From Patescibacteria group bacterium (lineage in GTDB: Bacteria; Patescibacteriota; Patescibacteriia; Buchananbacterales; SURF-54), in NCBI GenBank assembly GCA_018818885.1, contig JAHIRB010000021.1:12461-76460 (forward strand): a stretch of 64,000 nt of DNA. The letters are read 5' to 3'. The position numbers and the translations under genes were made by a program. Positions 2,445-30,604 of this stretch are shown piece by piece. Numbering within the stretch: position 1 is the stretch's first letter; each line of letters begins with the position of its first letter. Under the pieces are notes generated by a model. That model made no database searches and had not been told where the DNA came from. It saw only the letters and a program-made list of their open reading frames with translations.

Positions 2445-2625
2445 TTAATAATAACAATACTAAATATATAAGGGTTCGACTATGCCCGCCGAAGTCCAAC
2501 AGGACGTAGGCGGGGTCCCGCCCCGGGCACTTATAAATTATAAAAAAATATTAAAATTGACTGGTCCTGAGCGACTCAAAGTTAACCTAAGTTAAGTCGA
2601 AGGGCCTTGGGCACCAATAAAATTT

Positions 2626-21822: not shown

Positions 21823-22921
21823 TTTTTAATTCTTTAATATTTTTAATTATAATATCAAAACCATACGCAGAAAATATTATTAATACAGGCATTAGAATTA
21901 CATCGCGTGTAGGGCTATAACCTAAATGTGCATCAACAAAAGAAGGGATAGCTGCACCTAACACAAACCATAAAATCAAAAACTTATAACTTGATTTTAG
22001 CTTGTCACTTAACATAGAAAATATTGCGATCAGTATAAAAAATACATCCCAAAAATAAACTAAACCGTAAAAATAATTTCCTCCTCGTGTCAGTAAAGTC
22101 AAAATATTAAAGTGTAATAAGTAATTGAGACTGTAATTTATTGGTATCATCATACCTTCATAAATATTCAAAACTGAAACACCACTAAAACGAGTGTGCG
22201 AAAGTGAGGGTAAATCAAAAAATAAAAACTTATCAAATCCCAAAATATTAAATTGATTCTTTAAATAAAAAAGTACTATCGGTAAACTAAAGAGAAACAT
22301 AACAGCAATACCTGCGCTAAAAAATCTTTTATTAATCTGCTTGTGATAAATAAAACAAATGATCGCAATTAATAATGGTACAAACATAAAACTTACTGCG
22401 TAAGTATAAAAAGAAAGTGCTAATAGCAAAAAACTAATGATGTAATAAACTACTTTTTTATTATTAATACCTAATAGAATAAATAATATGGCTGCAGTAT
22501 AAATTAAAGGTAATAGATATGCATTAAAGCCGATAACAGACGTTCTGATACTCCAGGGGTTAATAAGTGCAAATGCTGCTGCTATAACTGCCACCTCTTG
22601 ATTAAATAATAATTTAACAAAATGAAATAAAACAAACACAAATAGAAGGTTTGCCAGCAAAATAAGTACTCTAAAAATAACGATTGGATGCAAATTAGAG
22701 AATATTTTGATAAATGGTAATGCTAAATAAGCTAAAGTAGTATTTTCTCCCCAGCCAAAACCATAAAAATGTACTGGGACATTTTGCAACGTTATTGACT
22801 TGACCCCTTGGACGAGTTGATACTCATCAACTTCAAAATCTATACTAATAATAAAATAAATTCTGACTAATATTCCCAAAACTAAAATTAATACTAGAAA
22901 CAATTTTAATCTTTTTGACAT
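21788..22921 (-). CDS. polytopic membrane protein, putative GT-C glycosyltransferase (ArnT/PMT-like)
   Basis: ~11 TM helices. The track ORF starts with TTG at 22969; the first ATG (MSKRLKLF...) at ~22921 is preferred. Confidence 0.5.
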   Translation of the reverse strand: MSKRLKLFLVLILVLGILVRIYFIISIDFEVDEYQLVQGVKSITLQNVPVHFYGFGWGENTTLAYLALPFIKIFSNLHPIVIFRVLILLANLLFVFVLFHFVKLLFNQEVAVIAAAFALINPWSIRTSVIGFNAYLLPLIYTAAILFILLGINNKKVVYYIISFLLLALSFYTYAVSFMFVPLLIAIICFIYHKQINKRFFSAGIAVMFLFSLPIVLFYLKNQFNILGFDKFLFFDLPSLSHTRFSGVSVLNIYEGMMIPINYSLNYLLHFNILTLLTRGGNYFYGLVYFWDVFFILIAIFSMLSDKLKSSYKFLILWFVLGAAIPSFVDAHLGYSPTRDVILMPVLIIFSAYGFDIIIKNIKELKNAYSRSNIRQV

Positions 22922-23163
22922 AAATTTAAATAATTTTGATAAAGCAAAAATAACAAATATTCTGTACAAAACGAAAAGGGGCGAGATTCCTCGTCAAAGG
23001 CGAGTGTGCCTCCCGTTCAGGGTCTGAGACCCTTCAGAGTCGAATGACTGGCACAGAGCCCACATTTAATTATCCACATTAGATTTTTTATCAATCCCGT
23101 ATAAAACGGAAGAGGCGAGATTCGAACTCTCGCGAGGGTATTACTACCCCACGGCTTTTCGAG

Positions 23164-23448
23164 ACCCCGTAGAAGAGCGGTGGGGGTGGGATTTGAACCC
23201 ACGGTCCACTTTCGTGAACAACGGTTTTCGAAACCGTCCCATTAAGCCGCTCTGGCACCCCACCGCTCTTCTACGGGGCATGGCCGCGCTCTTGCCCTGT
23301 AAAATCCAAAAGATTTTTACGGGGTTAAACCACTCAGCCACCCTTCCGTTTTCTACGGGACAAGCCAGCACATTAGACCACTCTGCTTGCCCGCCGAAGC
23401 TTGGAGAGCGCAGGCGGGCCAACCCTCCGCTCTTCTGCGAAAACGTAC
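23164..23448. repeat. 16-nt GC-rich motif ccgctcttctacgggg in three direct copies (~23262, ~23344, ~23436; spacing 82-92 nt) plus one inverted copy (~23164) bracketing tRNA-Ser
   Basis: Direct reading of the sequence. The inverted pair can extend the tRNA acceptor stem by ~14 bp. Confidence 0.6.
23178..23264 (-). tRNA. tRNA-Ser (anticodon CGA), type II with long variable arm
   Basis: Manual fold of the minus strand: acceptor GGTGGGG/CCCCACC, D-arm CCA-GAGCGGCTTAA-TGG, anticodon stem ACGGT/ACCGT with loop TTCGAAA (anticodon CGA, U33, A37), variable hairpin GTTCAC-GAAA-GTGGAC, T-arm GTGGG-TTCAAAT-CCCAC, discriminator G. Coordinates +/-1. Confidence 0.75.
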
Positions 23449-23533
23449 AGATATCCTCCTTTAAAACATTTATATCTTATCACCTAAATTGACTAATTAA
23501 AAGTTTATAAATTTAAATATTTGTGGTATAATT

Positions 23534-24370
23534 TTGTATATGAAAAAAATAAAAAAAGTAGTAATTCCAGCTGCAGGACTCGGCACTAGATTCTTACCCG
23601 CTGCTAAAGCACAACCTAAGGAAATGTTAACTATTGTTGATAAACCCTTAATTCAATATATTGTAGAAGAGGCGGTTGCTGCAGGTATCGAAGATGTAAT
23701 CATTGTCACAGGCCAAAGCAAGCGTGCAATTGAAGATCATTTTGATAGAAATATTGAATTAGAAAATACCTTAAAACGAAATGGCAAAGCAAAACTTGCA
23801 AACGAAATGAAAAAAATTGCAGAAATGGCAAACTTTATTTACATTCGTCAAAAAGGTCCTTATGGCAATGGCACACCTATTCTTAATGCTAAACATTTGA
23901 TTGGTGACGAACCATTTGCGGTTTTGTGGGGTGATGATCTATTTTTAGGTAAAGAACCGCGACTCAAACAACTCATTAAAGTTTTTAATAAATATGGGGA
24001 CCCAGTAATTAATGCCGTTAATATTGATAACGAAGGAACAAAAAAGTATGGAGTTATTGATGGACTTCAAGTAGAAAAAAATGTTTTTCAACTAAAAACA
24101 ATTATTGAAAAACCAGGGCCTAAAAAAGCACCATCACGAATTGGTGCTGTTGGTGGCTTTGTTTTAACTCCTGATATATTCGAGATTCTAGAAAAAACAC
24201 CTTTAGGAAAAGGCGGCGAGCTGTGGCTAGTTGATGCAATATTTAGATTAATGAAGAAACGACCAGTCTATGCATGCAGAGTTGATGCGGAATATTATGA
24301 TATTGGTTCACCACTAGGTTGGCTAAAAGCTAATATGGCAGTAGCAAAAAAACAAAAAATGAAAATATAA
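23534..24370 (+). CDS. galU: UTP--glucose-1-phosphate uridylyltransferase
   Basis: KKVVIPAAGLGTRFLPAAKAQPKEMLTIVDKPLIQYIVEEA... is a canonical GalU N-terminus; 278 aa. Confidence 0.9.
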   Translation: MYMKKIKKVVIPAAGLGTRFLPAAKAQPKEMLTIVDKPLIQYIVEEAVAAGIEDVIIVTGQSKRAIEDHFDRNIELENTLKRNGKAKLANEMKKIAEMANFIYIRQKGPYGNGTPILNAKHLIGDEPFAVLWGDDLFLGKEPRLKQLIKVFNKYGDPVINAVNIDNEGTKKYGVIDGLQVEKNVFQLKTIIEKPGPKKAPSRIGAVGGFVLTPDIFEILEKTPLGKGGELWLVDAIFRLMKKRPVYACRVDAEYYDIGSPLGWLKANMAVAKKQKMKI

Positions 24371-25872: not shown

Positions 25873-26541
25873 ATGTTTACAAAAAATATAAAAATTCTAC
25901 TAGCATTATCTGTAATTTTATTATTGACTTTTGCGCTTGGTATCAAAACTGCAGATGCTGGGTGTTGTTTTTGCGAAGATGAAGTACCTGAATCTGCAGA
26001 TCAAGAAAGTGATTGCCGTGATGAATGTGTTTTTGAAAATGACGACAGTGTTTGTAGTCAAGTATCAACTTGCCAGAATAATCCGACAGCTCCTGGGTGC
26101 ACATCCAAAAATTGGGTAGAACAAATTGTTGGTGGACCGTTGATACCTTATGGCTGTACTACTTCATGTATAGAATGGGGGTCTGACGACAAATGTACAA
26201 ATCCCAAAGGTGCTGGGGAATGTGGATTTAATGATGTTGTAAAAATGATTGCCAACTTTTCTAAATTGCTCTTAGGCGTGGTTGGTAGCTTGGCTCTTCT
26301 AATGTTTATCTACGGTGGTTTAATGTTTGTTATTGCAGAAGGTAAAGAGGAAAGAATTCAAAAAGCAAAAGATGTCTTAAAGAATGCAGCTATTGGTTTA
26401 CTTATTGTGTTTACTGCTTGGATAATTGTTAATGTGGTCATTGCGGCGTTGACTGGACAATCCATTGGAGAACCCGCTGATCTATTCAAACAAGGCACTA
26501 CTGGACAAGGTACGCCCTGGAACCAACCTTCAGCAAATTAA
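25873..26541 (+). CDS. pilin-like paralog 1: signal peptide, 14-Cys extracellular domain, C-terminal VirB2/TrbC-like two-helix module
   Basis: C-terminal LLLGVVGSLALLMFIYGGLMFVIAEGKEERIQKAKDVLKNAAIGLLIVFTAWIIVNVV aligns with the core of the nine following genes. N-terminal 120 aa hold 14 Cys (GCCFCEDE...CRDECVFENDDSVCSQVSTCQNNPTAPGCTSKNW...CTTSCIEWGSDDKCTNPKGAGECGF). Confidence 0.6.
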   Translation: MFTKNIKILLALSVILLLTFALGIKTADAGCCFCEDEVPESADQESDCRDECVFENDDSVCSQVSTCQNNPTAPGCTSKNWVEQIVGGPLIPYGCTTSCIEWGSDDKCTNPKGAGECGFNDVVKMIANFSKLLLGVVGSLALLMFIYGGLMFVIAEGKEERIQKAKDVLKNAAIGLLIVFTAWIIVNVVIAALTGQSIGEPADLFKQGTTGQGTPWNQPSAN

Positions 26542-26661
26542 TATAATCCTACATATCCACACCACCTGTTGACAAATTAGGGATAAAGTTGTTATAATAT
26601 ACACAGTTTAATATTACTATTTAGTATAAGTTGGAGGAACTTAATAATTTTATACAAAAAC

Positions 26662-27018
26662 ATGCGAAAACTAACATTTTTCCTAACAGTATTAGCTGTT
26701 TTCACTTTAACAGCTGTACCAGTATTAGCACTTGATTGGGGCTCTGGCTATCTTTCTGCAACCGGTTTAGGAACCAAAGAACTACGAGAATCAGTAATGA
26801 GCATTGTTAATGTCGCCTTAGGATTTTTAGGCATATTGGCAATTTTAATCATCCTATGGGGTGGCTTTGTTTGGCTAACAGCTGGCGGGGATGAAAGTAA
26901 AGTAGAAAGTGCAAAAAAAATCATTACTGGTGGAGTAGTTGGGCTGGTTATTATCCTTTCCGCACTGGCAATTACCAACTTCGTAGTTGCACAAATATTG
27001 AATGCTACTGGTGCATAA
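26662..27018 (+). CDS. pilin-like paralog 2 (118 aa, minimal core form)
   Basis: Signal peptide. Core ...IVNVALGFLGILAILIILWGGFVWLTAGGDESKVESAKKIITGGVVGLVIILSALAITNFVV... ~85% identical to paralog 3. Own SD (GGAGG). Confidence 0.65.
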   Translation: MRKLTFFLTVLAVFTLTAVPVLALDWGSGYLSATGLGTKELRESVMSIVNVALGFLGILAILIILWGGFVWLTAGGDESKVESAKKIITGGVVGLVIILSALAITNFVVAQILNATGA

Positions 27019-27158
27019 ACAGTTTAATATTTAAACTTAACCCTAATATTTCCTCAAATAAAATATTAAGAATTAATTGTTTAGCTCTTTAAATAATTAA
27101 TGACGATTTATTATTAATAAAGAGTTAAGCGAGGAAAAAGGAAGGGGGTGAAAAAGAA

Positions 27159-27515
27159 ATGAAAAAACTTACTATATTTGCTACAACTGTAGCAGTATTT
27201 ACCCTAACAGTTATGCCAGTATTGGCATTAGATCTAGGAACTGGTTACTTATCAGCAACCGGTTTAGGAACCAAAGAACTTAGAGAATCAGTAATGAGTA
27301 TTGTTAATGTCGCCTTAGGATTCTTAGGTATATTGGCAATTTTAATCATCCTATGGGGTGGTTTTAGATGGTTGACTGCTGGAGGATCAGAAGATAAAGT
27401 TGGCGAAGCAAAAAAGATTATTGTTGCTGGAATTATTGGCTTAGTCATTATTCTATCAGCATTAGCAATTACTACATTTGTTGTATCGAACATACTAACT
27501 GCAACAGGAGCATAA
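27159..27515 (+). CDS. pilin-like paralog 3 (118 aa, minimal core form)
   Basis: Near-duplicate of paralog 2; strong SD (GGAAGGGGGTG); terminator immediately downstream. Confidence 0.65.
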   Translation: MKKLTIFATTVAVFTLTVMPVLALDLGTGYLSATGLGTKELRESVMSIVNVALGFLGILAILIILWGGFRWLTAGGSEDKVGEAKKIIVAGIIGLVIILSALAITTFVVSNILTATGA

Positions 27516-27540
27516 CACTAACCTTAACTATAATTTTGTT

Positions 27541-27570
27541 AAAGACCCGGAGAAATCCGGGTCTTTACTT
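27541..27570 (+). terminator. rho-independent terminator after paralog 3
   Basis: agacccgg-agaaat-ccgggtct followed by a T-rich tract. Confidence 0.6.
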
Positions 27571-27632
27571 ATTGATTATAATAGTGTATAAATCCCCTTA
27601 TTTTTTCATAGATTTTGTAGTATAATAAAGAT

Positions 27633-28049
27633 ATGAAAATACTTCATAAAAATACCTATAAAATTGTTGTGATCTTACCATTGTTGGTATATTTGTGTTT
27701 AACCTTACTGATACCAGCTGTAGTTTTTGCAAGTCCAAGTGATGATAATTATGGCCTAGACACAACTGTTGATACAGGAGGAGTTACTGAATTTGCTGGC
27801 AAAGAAAGTGATCTAAGCAAAATGGCCGGACAATTTATAAATTACGTTTTGGGAATAGTTGGTACTATCTTTTTTCTTGTCATTCTAATTGGCGGCTATA
27901 GATGGATGACAGCAGGTGGTAGCGAAGAAAAAGTTGGTGCAGCAAAAAAGATTATTGTGCAAGGTATTTTCGGTATGTTAGCTATCTTTTTAGCTTATGC
28001 ATTAGCCTTTGCTATAATACAAGCATTGACTACGGCAATAAAACCTTAA
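27633..28049 (+). CDS. pilin-like paralog 4 (138 aa)
   Basis: Signal peptide, variable region, then core ...YVLGIVGTIFFLVILIGGYRWMTAGGSEEKVGAAKKIIVQGIFGMLAIFLAYALAFAII... Confidence 0.6.
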   Translation: MKILHKNTYKIVVILPLLVYLCLTLLIPAVVFASPSDDNYGLDTTVDTGGVTEFAGKESDLSKMAGQFINYVLGIVGTIFFLVILIGGYRWMTAGGSEEKVGAAKKIIVQGIFGMLAIFLAYALAFAIIQALTTAIKP

Positions 28050-28068
28050 TAATGAATATTGCGATGAG

Positions 28069-28461
28069 ATGGCTAATAGATTAAAAAAACAAATATTACT
28101 TACTTTAGTCTGTTGTTTGATAATCTTACCTGCAACAAGCATACTAGCTACCACTGTGGAAGAAAGCCTAATTAATTCTGGCAAAGAAGCTGGATTTTAT
28201 AAAGGTGAAGAAACCGCTAGTTTTTCTCAAGCTCTTATTGTTTACGCTAATGGTTTAGCAGGAATGCTAGGAGTATTATATTTAATTCTAATGATGTATG
28301 CCGGGTATGTTTGGATGAACTCAAGAGGTAATGAAGAAGAAGTTACTAAAGCAAGAAAAATAATAATTTGGTCTACAGTTGGCATAGGAACAATATTAAT
28401 GGCTCTTATTATTTCCGAATTTATTATATATAATTTCTACACGCAATCTAAAACTCCGTAA
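28069..28461 (+). CDS. pilin-like paralog 5 (130 aa)
   Basis: Core ...LGVLYLILMMYAGYVWMNSRGNEEEVTKARKIIIWSTVGIGTILMALIISEFII... Confidence 0.6.
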   Translation: MANRLKKQILLTLVCCLIILPATSILATTVEESLINSGKEAGFYKGEETASFSQALIVYANGLAGMLGVLYLILMMYAGYVWMNSRGNEEEVTKARKIIIWSTVGIGTILMALIISEFIIYNFYTQSKTP

Positions 28462-28474
28462 ATATCTTTAAAAA

Positions 28475-28888
28475 ATGACTATTCAAAGCAAGTTTATCAA
28501 AACCATTTTGTGTAGCTTACTAATCTTAGTTTGCTTAAATATACCTTTACATTATATTGCCGCTACAGATAGCATAGGTCAACGAATGGCAGATGAATCA
28601 CAAAAAGCAGCAAAAGCTGCAAAATTCGATGATACACCAGATTTTACAACTTCTGCACTTGGACTTATCAATATACTTTTAGGTTTTCTAGGTGTTTTCT
28701 TCATCATTTTAATAATATATGGCGGATACCTATGGATGGATGCGCGTGGCAGAGAAGAACAAATTGATAAAGGAAAAAAAATATTAATTGCTGCGTTTAT
28801 TGGCATTGTTATAATTATAAGTGCGAGAATCATATCTGAATATCTACTAATAGAAATATTTAATAAAGCTGCTCAAAAAATATCATGA
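28475..28888 (+). CDS. pilin-like paralog 6 (137 aa)
   Basis: Core ...LGFLGVFFIILIIYGGYLWMDARGREEQIDKGKKILIAAFIGIVIIISARIISEYLL... Confidence 0.6.
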   Translation: MTIQSKFIKTILCSLLILVCLNIPLHYIAATDSIGQRMADESQKAAKAAKFDDTPDFTTSALGLINILLGFLGVFFIILIIYGGYLWMDARGREEQIDKGKKILIAAFIGIVIIISARIISEYLLIEIFNKAAQKIS

Positions 28889-29331
28889 ATATAAATTACA
28901 ATAAAATTATTATTATACTTGTTGCCGGATTTTTATTTATGAATATATGCACACCAGTACTGGCAACAGAATGTGACGACCCATCTTTTACTATTGTTCA
29001 AAAAATGGCTTGTCAAAATAAAAAGTCGGACCTGCCTGGGTATCTTGATTCAGGTGGAGGCACAATCTCAACCAACTCCCCGGATGTAGTAGTTGGCAAA
29101 GTTATAGGATATATGCTAACTTTTTTGGGAGTATTGTTTTTAGTATTAATTATTTACGGTGGCTATCTTTGGATGACAGCCAGCGGTAATGACGACCAAA
29201 TCGGCAAGGCTAAAAAGATAATTATTGGCGCTTTTATTGGGTTTGTAATCATTATATTAGCAAATATTATTGTACAGTTCGCTACGCAAGTTATTGAACA
29301 AGGAGTTACCACGCCAGAAGCTACTGAATAA
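28885..29331 (+). CDS. pilin-like paralog 7 (148 aa)
   Basis: ATGA overlap with paralog 6. Core ...LTFLGVLFLVLIIYGGYLWMTASGNDDQIGKAKKIIIGAFIGFVIIILANIIVQF... Confidence 0.6.
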   Translation: MNINYNKIIIILVAGFLFMNICTPVLATECDDPSFTIVQKMACQNKKSDLPGYLDSGGGTISTNSPDVVVGKVIGYMLTFLGVLFLVLIIYGGYLWMTASGNDDQIGKAKKIIIGAFIGFVIIILANIIVQFATQVIEQGVTTPEATE

Positions 29332-29346
29332 AAATTCGTTTAATTT

Positions 29347-29754
29347 ATGATAAAAAATAAAAAAATAATAAATTTCATCTTCTTATTAGCGATCTTTTTA
29401 ATACTGGTCCAACCTCTTGCAGTGCAAGCTAGCATATTTGAAACAATAAGAAGCAAGACTGTTGGCTTTGGAGATTTACCTGACTATTCCGCAACTGAAA
29501 ACAGCCCGGAATTAATAGCAGGTAGAATAATCGGATATTTATTATCTTTCCTAGGAGTATTATTTATTATTTTAATTATTTATGGCGGCTTTATGTGGAT
29601 GACAGCCTCAGGCAATGACGAACAGGTAGAAAAAGCAAAAAAGATGATTAAAAGAGCAACGATTGGATTATTTATTGTGTTAGCTTCAGCTGCAATTGCA
29701 TGGAGCGTATTTTTGGCACTAAGTAAATCTAATATTTACTTGTTGCCTGAGTAG
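29347..29754 (+). CDS. pilin-like paralog 8 (135 aa)
   Basis: Core ...LSFLGVLFIILIIYGGFMWMTASGNDEQVEKAKKMIKRATIGLFIVLASAAIAWSVF... Confidence 0.6.
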   Translation: MIKNKKIINFIFLLAIFLILVQPLAVQASIFETIRSKTVGFGDLPDYSATENSPELIAGRIIGYLLSFLGVLFIILIIYGGFMWMTASGNDEQVEKAKKMIKRATIGLFIVLASAAIAWSVFLALSKSNIYLLPE

Positions 29755-29777
29755 ATATTACTACAATAAAATTTATT

Positions 29778-30164
29778 ATGAATAAATATTATAAAACACT
29801 AAGTTATATAGTTCCCAACTTTGCCATATTATTATTTTGTAAAACAGCAAAAGCAACGGAGATGTATGAAAGAGTCAACAAATTTAACGTTGCGGCAGGA
29901 CTAACTGCAACTCCGGCAAGTGTTGTAATAACTTCAATTATCAGTTATTTATTATCGTTTGTTGGTGTTCTATTCATAATATTAATTATCTATGGTGGCT
30001 ACATGTGGATGACAGCGCGCGGTAACGACGAACAGGTTGAAAAAGCAAAAAAATTAATAATTAGAGCCACTATTGGTATATTAATTGTTTTATCTGCATA
30101 CGTAATTACTTATTTTGTATTAAAAGTAGTGCTTGGATCCACGGGTATTGCCACATCATCATAA
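29778..30164 (+). CDS. pilin-like paralog 9 (128 aa)
   Basis: Core ...LSFVGVLFIILIIYGGYMWMTARGNDEQVEKAKKLIIRATIGILIVLSAYVITYFVL... Confidence 0.6.
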   Translation: MNKYYKTLSYIVPNFAILLFCKTAKATEMYERVNKFNVAAGLTATPASVVITSIISYLLSFVGVLFIILIIYGGYMWMTARGNDEQVEKAKKLIIRATIGILIVLSAYVITYFVLKVVLGSTGIATSS

Positions 30165-30166
30165 AT

Positions 30167-30604
30167 ATGAAACTTCCAACCAAATTACTAAACTTATTTA
30201 TACTAAGCATAGTCATAATACAATTATTTACTTTTTTTGTAGTTAGACCTGTAGCACACGCTGGTTTGTGGGAAGACATCAGAGGCGAACTTGAACCAAT
30301 TGGGACAGCTTATGGTGTTACCGGTGCTCCTAATGATCCTCGGGATATCGCTATGACCGTTGTTAATTTCGCCTTGGGCTTTTTCTCTGTCATATTTCTA
30401 ATTTTGATTATCTATGCAGGCTACTTATGGATGACAGCAAGAGGCAACGACGATCAAATTGAAAAAGCAAAAAAAATAATTACTAGAACAGTCATTGGCG
30501 CAGCTATTGTGTTGGCTGCTTGGATGATTACTCTTTTTGTTATATCAACACTCCTAAGTGCTACAAACGAAAATCTTTTCCGTGATCGCTGGCGTTGGTT
30601 TTAA
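30167..30604 (+). CDS. pilin-like paralog 10 (145 aa)
   Basis: Core ...LGFFSVIFLILIIYAGYLWMTARGNDDQIEKAKKIITRTVIGAAIVLAAWMITLFVI...; 2-nt gap from paralog 9. Confidence 0.6.
   Translation: MKLPTKLLNLFILSIVIIQLFTFFVVRPVAHAGLWEDIRGELEPIGTAYGVTGAPNDPRDIAMTVVNFALGFFSVIFLILIIYAGYLWMTARGNDDQIEKAKKIITRTVIGAAIVLAAWMITLFVISTLLSATNENLFRDRWRWF

Follow-up and report, generated by a model that had tools for sequence, protein, structure and literature searches.

Apart from rare self-splicing introns, the tRNA genes of bacteria are usually regarded as simple and free of interruptions. Archaeal tRNA genes can be disrupted by non-canonical introns, split or permuted, and a protective role of such disruption against integrating elements has been proposed. 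A bulge-helix-bulge consists of two 3-nt bulges on opposite strands, 4 bp apart, at the exon-intron borders. Long helices are also formed by the RNase III stems of rRNA operons and by the intervening sequences of 23S rRNA, which are cut by a double-strand nuclease and are not re-ligated. In Patescibacteria, self-splicing group I introns occupy position 35/36 of tRNA-Asn and tRNA-Asp (PMC13011429); the terms tRNASer, nested and inverted repeat are absent from the text of that paper. Integrases furthermore use tRNA genes as attachment sites and displace fragments of them (Islander, PMC4383910; Williams 2002 cited therein). Insertion sequences with LAGLIDADG are located at the tops or bases of stem-loops in the rRNA of CPR bacteria, where LAGLIDADG_3 is reported in 16S insertions only; that paper deals with rRNA only and the word tRNA occurs in it 0 times (PMC11270868). 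In the literature searched for nested, split or disrupted tRNA genes in Patescibacteria/CPR we found no description of the kind of nesting reported here.

The locus lies in a 64-kb stretch of DNA, which we analysed as a whole and call the window. GalU relationships place it in Patescibacteria, nearest to Candidatus Buchananbacteria. A sequence-only reading had singled out a GC-rich block at 22975-23460 with more than 55% GC and no credible ORF. The first figure is valid for the core (56.8% at 23096-23440), not for the block as delimited there (53.7%); the GC content of the window is 32.2%. The second statement stands, three mechanical ORFs of 61-99 aa overlapping the tRNA and not being credible. 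The block sequence is 100% identical in an independent Logan assembly and is therefore not an assembly artefact. The block is a real feature and not a new RNA family. As that reading had also stated, signatures of tmRNA and RNase P are missing: Rfam at E ≤ 10 revealed no tmRNA, RNase P, SRP RNA, riboswitch or group I intron in 22800-23600, and ARAGORN made no tmRNA call in the block. A weak tmRNA_permuted match (11.4 bits vs a threshold of 47) overlaps the tRNA, and the Plastid-psbI-rps4, sX4 and mir-3547 matches in Rfam were rejected as sub-threshold echoes of it. The only tRNA that ARAGORN and Rfam detect in the block is the innermost one; the two outer layers are not detected as encoded.

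The block consists of three concentric copies of tRNA-Ser(CGA) on the minus strand, L1 inside L2 inside L3, and both the nested anatomy and the tRNA-Ser homology of each layer are direct observations of this study. In the order of the minus strand (three-digit labels denote other loci) the parts are as follows:

23474-23482, minus strand: extended -10 promoter element TGATAAGAT, a conserved upstream element
23360-23438, minus strand: 5' part of L3, placed by alignment to the L103 tRNA and to the outer copies of L120 and L112, which are well preserved
23389-23419, no strand assigned: 31-nt GC hairpin GCCCGCC-N17-GGCGGGC, inserted after L3 position 9
23348-23359, minus strand: L2 leader CCCGTAGAAAAC, paired with the trailer 23096-23107 (inverted repeat I3)
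23279-23347, minus strand: 5' part of L2, aligned with the intact tRNA-Ser of L102 and L121
23295-23323, minus strand: cargo-less D-loop hairpin of L2, CCCGTAAAAATC-TTTTG-GATTTTACAGGG, from inverted repeat I20 and alignment
23265-23278, minus strand: L1 leader CCCCGTAGAAGAGC, in perfect 14-bp pairing with 23165-23178 that is continuous with the acceptor stem
23178-23264, minus strand: L1, type II tRNA-Ser(CGA) of 87 nt (ARAGORN; Rfam RF00005)
23165-23177, minus strand: L1 trailer CTCTTCTACGGGG, from inverted repeat I1 and the fold
23107-23164, minus strand: 3' part of L2, aligned with L102, L121 and L111
23096-23106, minus strand: L2 trailer TTTTATACGGG, from I3 and the alignment of units
22972-23095, minus strand: 3' part of L3, heavily decayed, recognised by its junction match to the L120 outer copy and by 3' direct repeats
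22962-22971, minus strand: L3 trailer TTTTGTACAG, from direct repeat D4 and the fold

L1 is the single canonical tRNA-Ser(CGA) that had been noticed on the minus strand, and it scores 54.6 bits with RF00005 against a gathering score of 29. The 14-bp inverted repeat said to extend its acceptor stem is perfect: 23165-23185 and 23258-23278 form a 21-nt inverted repeat made up of the 14-nt flank and the 7-nt acceptor strand. CCA is not encoded, and the discriminator G at 23178 pairs with the C at position -1 of L1. The 124-nt L1 unit folds as a cloverleaf atop a 21-bp stem (z = -8.8). The insert is only 13 + 87 + 13 nt, its non-tRNA part being about 27 nt. L1 is presumably the sole functional gene of the block.

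The leader motif had been reported to recur twice more in direct orientation, at spacings of 82 and 92 nt, and its copies were taken as borders of tRNA-sized units. The recurrence is confirmed (TTCTACGGG at 23269 and 23351, TTCTGCG at 23433), but the second spacing is also 82 nt and there are further copies, one at 23315 as part of a hairpin and complementary partners at 23096 and 23166. Nor are the copies borders: they are the 5' arms of nested helices, the 3' arms of which are found downstream of L1. I1 spans 21 nt with 100% complementarity and I3, which includes 5 acceptor bases (23095-23112 / 23343-23360), spans 18 nt with 94%. The two upstream segments are indeed without a T arm, each of them being no more than the 5' half of an outer tRNA-Ser copy. 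The missing 3' halves are located at 23164-23107 for L2 and, decayed, at 23095-22972 for L3. A tandem tRNA array was rejected, since the upstream segments gave no tRNA with ARAGORN or Rfam and nesting accounts for the missing T arms. Near-matches to the motif number 16 in the 64-kb window against 5.6 expected; 5 of them are in the block, the only place in the 64 kb where the motif clusters, and it is not dispersed.

L2 carries its own leader/trailer pair, CCCGTAGAAAAC and GTTTTATACGGG. Its 5' segment opens with GGAAGGG-TG-GCTGAGTGGTTTAA, the 5' end of a type II tRNA lacking the T arm, and comprises in order the acceptor strand GGAAGGG, TG, the D arm interrupted by the hairpin, AGC, G, CGGC and CATG. 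The L1 unit follows, just 5' of the L2 anticodon loop. The 3' part continues with T, the anticodon loop CTCGAAA, the stem AGCCG, the variable arm, the T arm, the acceptor strand CTCTTCC and the discriminator G; CTCTTCC-G pairs with GGAAGGG. A palindrome resembling a T arm, which the earlier reading had pointed out, is real and is the T arm of L2 (GCGAG-AG-TTCGAAT-CTCGC). If the 29-nt D-loop hairpin and the L1 unit are removed in silico and the halves joined, ARAGORN calls a tRNA-Ser(CGA). L2 aligns with intact tRNA-Ser genes over its full length except for 38-nt D-loop and 2-nt T-stem inserts, and once the inserts are removed the homology is collinear over all arms. The D-loop hairpin ends in the same terminal motif as the leader and trailer, and ORF-less hairpins are present at the same position in L120 and in L108/L118/L125. 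As compared to L102, L121 and L111, L2 has the 2-nt T-stem insertion and a G6-U67 wobble, both of which are signs of decay.

L3 is less well preserved. Its 5' part contains the leader-like GCAGAAGAGC, the acceptor strand GGAGGGT, TG, the GC hairpin, the D arm GCAGAGTGGTCTAATGTGC, the anticodon-stem strand GCTGG and CTTG (positions 32-35); with the GC hairpin taken out it is collinear with the outer copy of L120. The hairpin belongs to a family with a second copy at 2484-2514, in a tRNA-Leu remnant, and these are its only two sites in 64 kb (0 expected by chance). L102 also has a hairpin at this place of L3. GGCGGGC at 23395 was considered as a fourth acceptor stem and rejected, being the 3' arm of the 31-nt hairpin that recurs in the tRNA-Leu remnant. 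The 3' part of L3 consists of the tail ATTGATAA, an AT-rich stretch, the anticodon-stem strand CCAGT (23051-23047), an oversized GC-rich variable region, the T-arm remnant GACGAGGAATCTCGCC and the acceptor-like end CCTTTTC + G. Its junction ...CGGG/ATTGATAAAAA matches ATTGAGAAAAACCAGT of the L120 outer copy, and its 3' end repeats that of L2 in direct orientation (D4, D6). GTACAG of the L3 trailer pairs with CTGTAC at 23450-23445; since pairing between this trailer and the L3 leader is lacking, the outermost layer is possibly composite. With L2 and L3 identified as tRNA-Ser copies, the idea of degenerate tRNA genes, one of the candidates proposed at the outset, has been borne out.

The minimum-energy fold of the 521-nt region is made of concentric helices (z = -7.9). 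The element GTGATAAGATA is kept upstream of the tRNA-Ser locus in 6/6 syntenic loci; a simple promoter consensus scan did not detect the conserved -10 element. Transcription is predicted to start near 23467, which would make a single transcript of the entire block. Within the block there is no predicted terminator, and a PMT_2 (glycosyltransferase) gene is situated directly downstream on the same strand, with no predicted terminator between. These features, together with the very stable fold and the persistence of an L3-like shell in L102, would fit the view that the entire block acts as one composite structured RNA made of tRNA-like modules, perhaps a scaffold or a regulator ahead of the glycosyltransferase gene. 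We consider such a function highly improbable. The outer parts differ greatly among syntenic relatives (L096 and L103 are un-nested, L121 bears a different nest), nests occur at three tRNA-Ser loci with unrelated neighbours, and there is no match to an Rfam family.

In every syntenic locus a tRNA-Ser(CGA) gene is located divergently upstream of galU, behind the conserved GTGATAAGATA element. The most informative relative is L102, with a GalU 73% identical to that of the window. It contains an uninterrupted ortholog of L2 with a canonical T arm and the anticodon arm CGGCT-CTCGAAA-AGCCG, flanked by CCCGTAAAATGC and GCTTTGTACGGG with the same CCCGTA/TACGGG flanks and lying within an L3-like remnant. 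The window equivalent reads CGGC(CATG-CCCC...L1...GGGG)TCTCGAAAAGCCG. Comparison of the two junctions identifies L102 as an empty site for the L1 insertion. The window and L102 have the L3 remnant and its hairpin in common in spite of the GalU divergence. This is a long persistence for junk in a small genome, and it counts against reading L3 as a relic.

The un-nested relatives L096 and L103 have one tRNA-Ser each, accompanied by no more than a 5' or a 3' remnant, and an intact gene with a downstream 3' fragment is seen at L103/L104 and at the window tRNA-Leu. Such arrangements recall integrase sites: the anticodon loop and the T loop/junction are where integrases break a tRNA gene, and displaced 5' or 3' fragments remain by the intact gene (PMC4383910). 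It could be argued that all remnants are footprints of larger integrase-mediated elements (prophages, islands), later nearly all deleted, with no small cassette involved; the large serine recombinase that adjoins tRNA-Ser in L130 speaks for this as well. We regard it as quite unlikely. Integrases normally restore their target and displace one fragment; a complete second gene would not be enclosed by both halves. What sets the nest apart from an integrase footprint is that both halves surround a whole gene whose paired flanks are conserved, and deletions that arose independently would not leave identical paired flanks of 13 nt time after time in many lineages. Here there is neither an integrase nor an island, and in no nest did we find integrase or island remnants.

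Nests are not confined to the window. We scanned metagenomes with the pattern CCCGTANAA-N2-5-GGNNGGGTGNCNGAGNGG (leader plus tRNA start), counting only leader-bearing loci. Of the 23 loci found, 23/23 have a tRNA-Ser (CGA, TGA or GGA) inside an outer tRNA-Ser remnant. The inner gene is intact in 21; one is cut by a contig end (L107; L117 is likewise without its 3' part), and the unit of L119 is split by a further nested tRNA-Ser. At least three layers are present in L119, L120 and L121. Units with CGA and TGA anticodons are inserted after outer position 35, and GGA units after TT in the T loop of the outer copy; anticodon loop and T loop are also the sublocations of tRNA-targeting integrases (PMC4383910). 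In 10/12 readable cases the inner anticodon (CGA or TGA) is matched by outer positions 33-35 (TCG or TTG). Neighbouring genes point to Parcubacteria bacterium for L108/L118 and to Portnoybacteria for L112/L127, and the nests fall into three conserved chromosomal contexts, i.e. three tRNA-Ser loci with unrelated neighbours. A scan of genome contigs with CCCGTAGAA-N75-105-TTCTACGGG gave 95 matches, and in the 15 loci checked, candidate-phylum ones included, no tRNA lies between the arms; as nests these matches were ruled out, since they are unrelated inverted repeats and one Bdellovibrionota repeat family. The nesting unit and its motif are absent from viral contigs, which gives no indication of phage carriage.

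It is important to note that the search pattern fixed the leader only, so the trailer was not selected for. Nevertheless the trailer pairs with the leader over 12-14 bp in 13/19 units. In an ungapped alignment of 16 units 93.2% of the cells are standard pairs, as compared to 78.5% in shuffles and 35-54% with the partner slid. Changes on both sides are seen at 13/21 pairs, a count to which joint shifts between 12-nt and 13-nt leaders contribute. Just outside CCCG/CGGG the helix is closed by C-G in some units and by U-A in others. In the middle of the usual consensus 13-bp helix, CCCGUAGAAAAGC / GCUUUCNUACGGG, a G.N + A.C step that is not Watson-Crick is retained; in window L1 this step is fully paired via a compensatory change. 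In L121 the inner unit has a different short stem, and the conserved leader sequence is thus not required for nesting.

The helix resembles RNase III stems in that a continuous flank helix of about two turns is formed from sequences flanking a stable RNA or insert: it is a perfect 21 bp in L1 and 93% paired over the 16 units. Unlike those stems, it encloses a tRNA inside another tRNA gene, and cleavage there is putative. The earlier suggestion of a precursor processed at the long double-stranded stem is plausible as a model. The units also share terminal inverted repeats with MITE-like elements (12-14-nt flanks in 13/19 units). Dispersed copies were not found: within 64 kb the motif clusters in the block, and all 23 metagenome loci are tRNA-Ser. 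The target-site duplication signal is ambiguous, CTCG being duplicated in L111 and at window L1, and the 3' tail in L112 and L120 being complementary, not identical, to the 5' flank.

What state are the outer copies in? The inner unit was excised in silico with 660 boundary combinations per locus in 20 loci. A callable outer tRNA was obtained in 3/20 (L112, L114 and L120) and not in the other 17/20. The remaining outer copies have lost the 3' half, have mutated stems, or have the anticodon loop replaced as a whole (L121). Between near-identical strains the inner gene is invariant and the outer shell has acquired substitutions and deletions (L112 vs L117 and L127; L108 vs L125). The few callable outer copies, the changes between strain pairs and the defects of window L2 taken together lead us to read the outer copies as remnants. 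In a few loci the outer copies may be recently formed or still functional: those of L120, L112/L127 and L114 are fully tRNA-like after removal of the insert, and the two outer substitutions between L112 and L127 are both structure-compatible. Sequence identity is 66-94% among inner units and 47-89% among outer 5' halves, and identity matrices do not separate mobility from functional constraint.

The same data bear on a second explanation, in which the inserts would be genuine introns of a novel type that is not a ribozyme. Once the inner tRNA had been cut out, the outer halves, kept in place by the leader/trailer helix and the outer cloverleaf, would be trimmed and ligated, giving two to three tRNA-Ser per transcript. 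The inserts are found in tRNA loops only (D loop, after position 35, T loop), the helix is conserved and covarying, and the outer tRNAs of L120, L112 and L114 are perfect after excision. Disrupted archaeal tRNA genes are alike in that the D, anticodon or T loop is interrupted and complementary flanks unite the pieces. Here the host is a bacterium, the insert is a complete tRNA of the same anticodon and the outer copies are mostly decayed. To our knowledge, no splicing endonuclease is known in this bacterial setting, and neither a splicing endonuclease nor an RtcB-type ligase was among the ORFs scanned in the 64-kb window. Inspection of the window, L112 and L120 revealed no bulge-helix-bulge, both unpaired stretches being on the 3' strand. 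The group I introns of the same phylum do use the same unusual site inside the anticodon, position 35/36 being the favoured intron site in Patescibacteria tRNAs (PMC13011429). The 13 + 87 + 13-nt insert is, however, too short for a ribozyme, and none is recognised by Rfam. Moreover, most outer copies (17/20) are truncated or decayed beyond calling, and the anticodon loop of the outer copy in L121 is wholly replaced. Neither the T-stem insertion nor the D-loop hairpin of window L2 is present in its intact ortholog. Since outer and inner copies share the anticodon, the outer copy is redundant, which also counts against splicing. Taken together, we find introns of this kind unlikely.

Selfish elements do target the tRNA-Ser(CGA) gene. 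In L099, L129, L130 and L131/L132 a tRNA-Ser sequence breaks off in the D loop (..GGTTGA/CTAATAACTACTCGTAT), and this 5' fragment is succeeded by an HTH-LAGLIDADG_3 gene and, immediately after it, by a complete tRNA-Ser(CGA). The family of the HTH-LAGLIDADG_3 gene has 443 homologs at E ≤ 1e-5. The window nest is similar to such homing-endonuclease insertions in the splitting of tRNA-Ser(CGA), and different in containing no ORF or endonuclease gene. Among the ORFs scanned in and around the window block there is no transposase, recombinase or nuclease, and none is consistently found beside the other nests. GIY-YIG genes were considered as the inserting agent and rejected, since they adjoin only two distinct nests.

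In the explanation we prefer, helix-clamped cassettes carrying a replacement tRNA-Ser were inserted into tRNA loops again and again, and the innermost gene alone is functional. For this insertion model as a whole, the three concentric copies of the block included, we estimate a probability of about 0.6. L1 would have arrived as a cassette in which the tRNA is flanked by a leader of 14 nt and a trailer of 13 nt, and would have been inserted just 5' of the anticodon loop of the resident L2, splitting it. L2 would have arrived earlier in like manner, inside the anticodon loop of L3. Because the cassette carries a complete tRNA of the same anticodon as the broken gene, insertion would cost the cell nothing. 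The broken outer halves would then be left to decay and to gain further small hairpin inserts. The helix of about 21 bp may keep the inner tRNA folding alone amid near-identical half-tRNAs, and it may also be a putative RNase III-type cleavage site that releases the pre-tRNA before its ends are trimmed. Site-specific and repeated insertion, its agent and the role of the helix at the RNA level are what we infer from these arrangements. More tentatively, the nests could represent either a new class of self-complementing tRNA-Ser cassettes of about 115 nt, with cargo-less hairpins, that target tRNA-Ser loops of their own anticodon, take the place of the gene they destroy and so build up multi-layer nests, or a new protein-dependent bacterial tRNA intron.

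As a gene architecture, the nesting of a tRNA within a tRNA, together with its conserved clamp helix, is unusual and recurs: in the window and in more than 20 related loci an essential tRNA gene would have been repeatedly overwritten from inside by its own copy, with concentric remnants left behind. This explains GC-rich islands of structured RNA near CPR tRNA-Ser genes and cautions annotators against taking such islands for novel ncRNAs or tandem tRNAs. With the conserved 13-bp helix (CCCGUAGAAAAGC/GCUUUCNUACGGG) defined, its partner enzyme can be sought. If the cassette is mobile, carrying the gene that it breaks would be a new route to a harmless selfish element. If the outer copies are spliced, this would be the first protein-dependent tRNA intron system in bacteria.

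A second type II tRNA locus with a displaced fragment is present in the window, since a tRNA-Leu 3' remnant lies beside an intact gene. The features of this locus and the related parts of the tRNA-Ser(CGA) nest are:

2361-2444, intact tRNA-Leu(TAA)
2470-2530 (+), tRNA-Leu 3' remnant, 26 nt downstream of the intact gene
2484-2514 and 23389-23418 (+), GC hairpin of the form GCCCGCCGAAG-N13/14-AGGCGGG, in two copies
23063-22996 (−), GC-rich stretch of ~70 nt between the anticodon-stem strand and the T-arm remnant of L3, the most decayed outer copy of the nest

By sequence match, GTCCCGCCCCGGGCA in the remnant is the counterpart of GTCTCGCCCTGGGCA in the intact tRNA-Leu(TAA) gene, and the T loop of the remnant is split by a 31-nt GC hairpin. 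Both GC hairpin copies are located within tRNA remnants. They are the only hairpins of this form in the 64-kb window, against none expected by chance. Hairpins of similar form (CCGCC-loop-GGCGG) are scattered through the remnants of four metagenome nests (L106, L112, L119 and L121). The GC-rich stretch of L3 greatly exceeds a normal variable arm in length and may represent an additional insert; its two small hairpins are AGTC-ATTC-GACT and GGGTC-TCA-GACCC.

Inverted repeats that share a short motif with the leader, i.e. the 5' flank of the inner tRNA-Ser, also occur in other genomes. A Portnoybacteria genome (L017:1751-1853) has a perfect 13-bp repeat, CCCCGTAGAATCA/TGATTCTACGGGG, with 77 nt of AT-rich non-tRNA DNA between its arms. 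A 14-bp repeat, CCCGTAGAACAAAG, is present in a Nanosyncoccus contig (L007:132-232), where it falls within the 5' 726 positions of the 23S rRNA gene. The two repeats have the terminal 9-mer of the leader in common, but their relatedness to it is uncertain because long palindromes are also frequent among unrelated matches of the same scan. The Bdellovibrionota MAG JBIKWF01 carries a 93-nt inverted-repeat element (TGTCCCGTAGAAA...) in >25 copies across one genome (L001, L003, L004, L008-L012 and ~20 more loci); it matched solely via the common 9-mer and is unrelated to the tRNA nests.

About ten small genes form a consecutive array (25873-30604, +) downstream of the genes for GalU and a solute-binding protein. 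The one array gene scanned, 26662-27018, is a T4SS_pilin (Pfam). The array is syntenic in three relatives (L096, L097 and L102), where precomputed Pfam annotation also gives T4SS_pilin.

GIY-YIG, LAGLIDADG_3 and recombinase genes are found at tRNA-Ser in other genomes:

L107:234-476 (−), L112:423-653, L117:3215-3448 and L127:3456-3689, GIY-YIG genes directly upstream of tRNA-Ser nests
L099:84-1067, L129:2501-3481, L130:2501-3514, L131:2501-3505 and L132:1206-2210, HTH + LAGLIDADG_3 genes
L130:3480-5165, large serine recombinase (Resolvase + Recombinase + Zn_ribbon_recom)

The GIY-YIG proteins are small (77-80 aa), with Pfam E-values from 1e-12 to 1e-16, and the adjoining nests belong to two distinct lineages, L107 to one and L112, L117 and L127 to the other. 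The HTH + LAGLIDADG_3 proteins (~330 aa) belong to a large Patescibacteria family with 443 homologs (E <= 1e-5). In all five loci the ORF is flanked by a tRNA-Ser 5' fragment truncated in the D-loop and by a complete tRNA-Ser(CGA), which overlaps the end of the ORF; CTAATAACTACTCGTAT is conserved at the left junction. The recombinase gene of L130 directly adjoins the endonuclease/tRNA-Ser(CGA) pair, and this neighbour suggests the tRNA-Ser(CGA) gene as a hot spot for integration as well.
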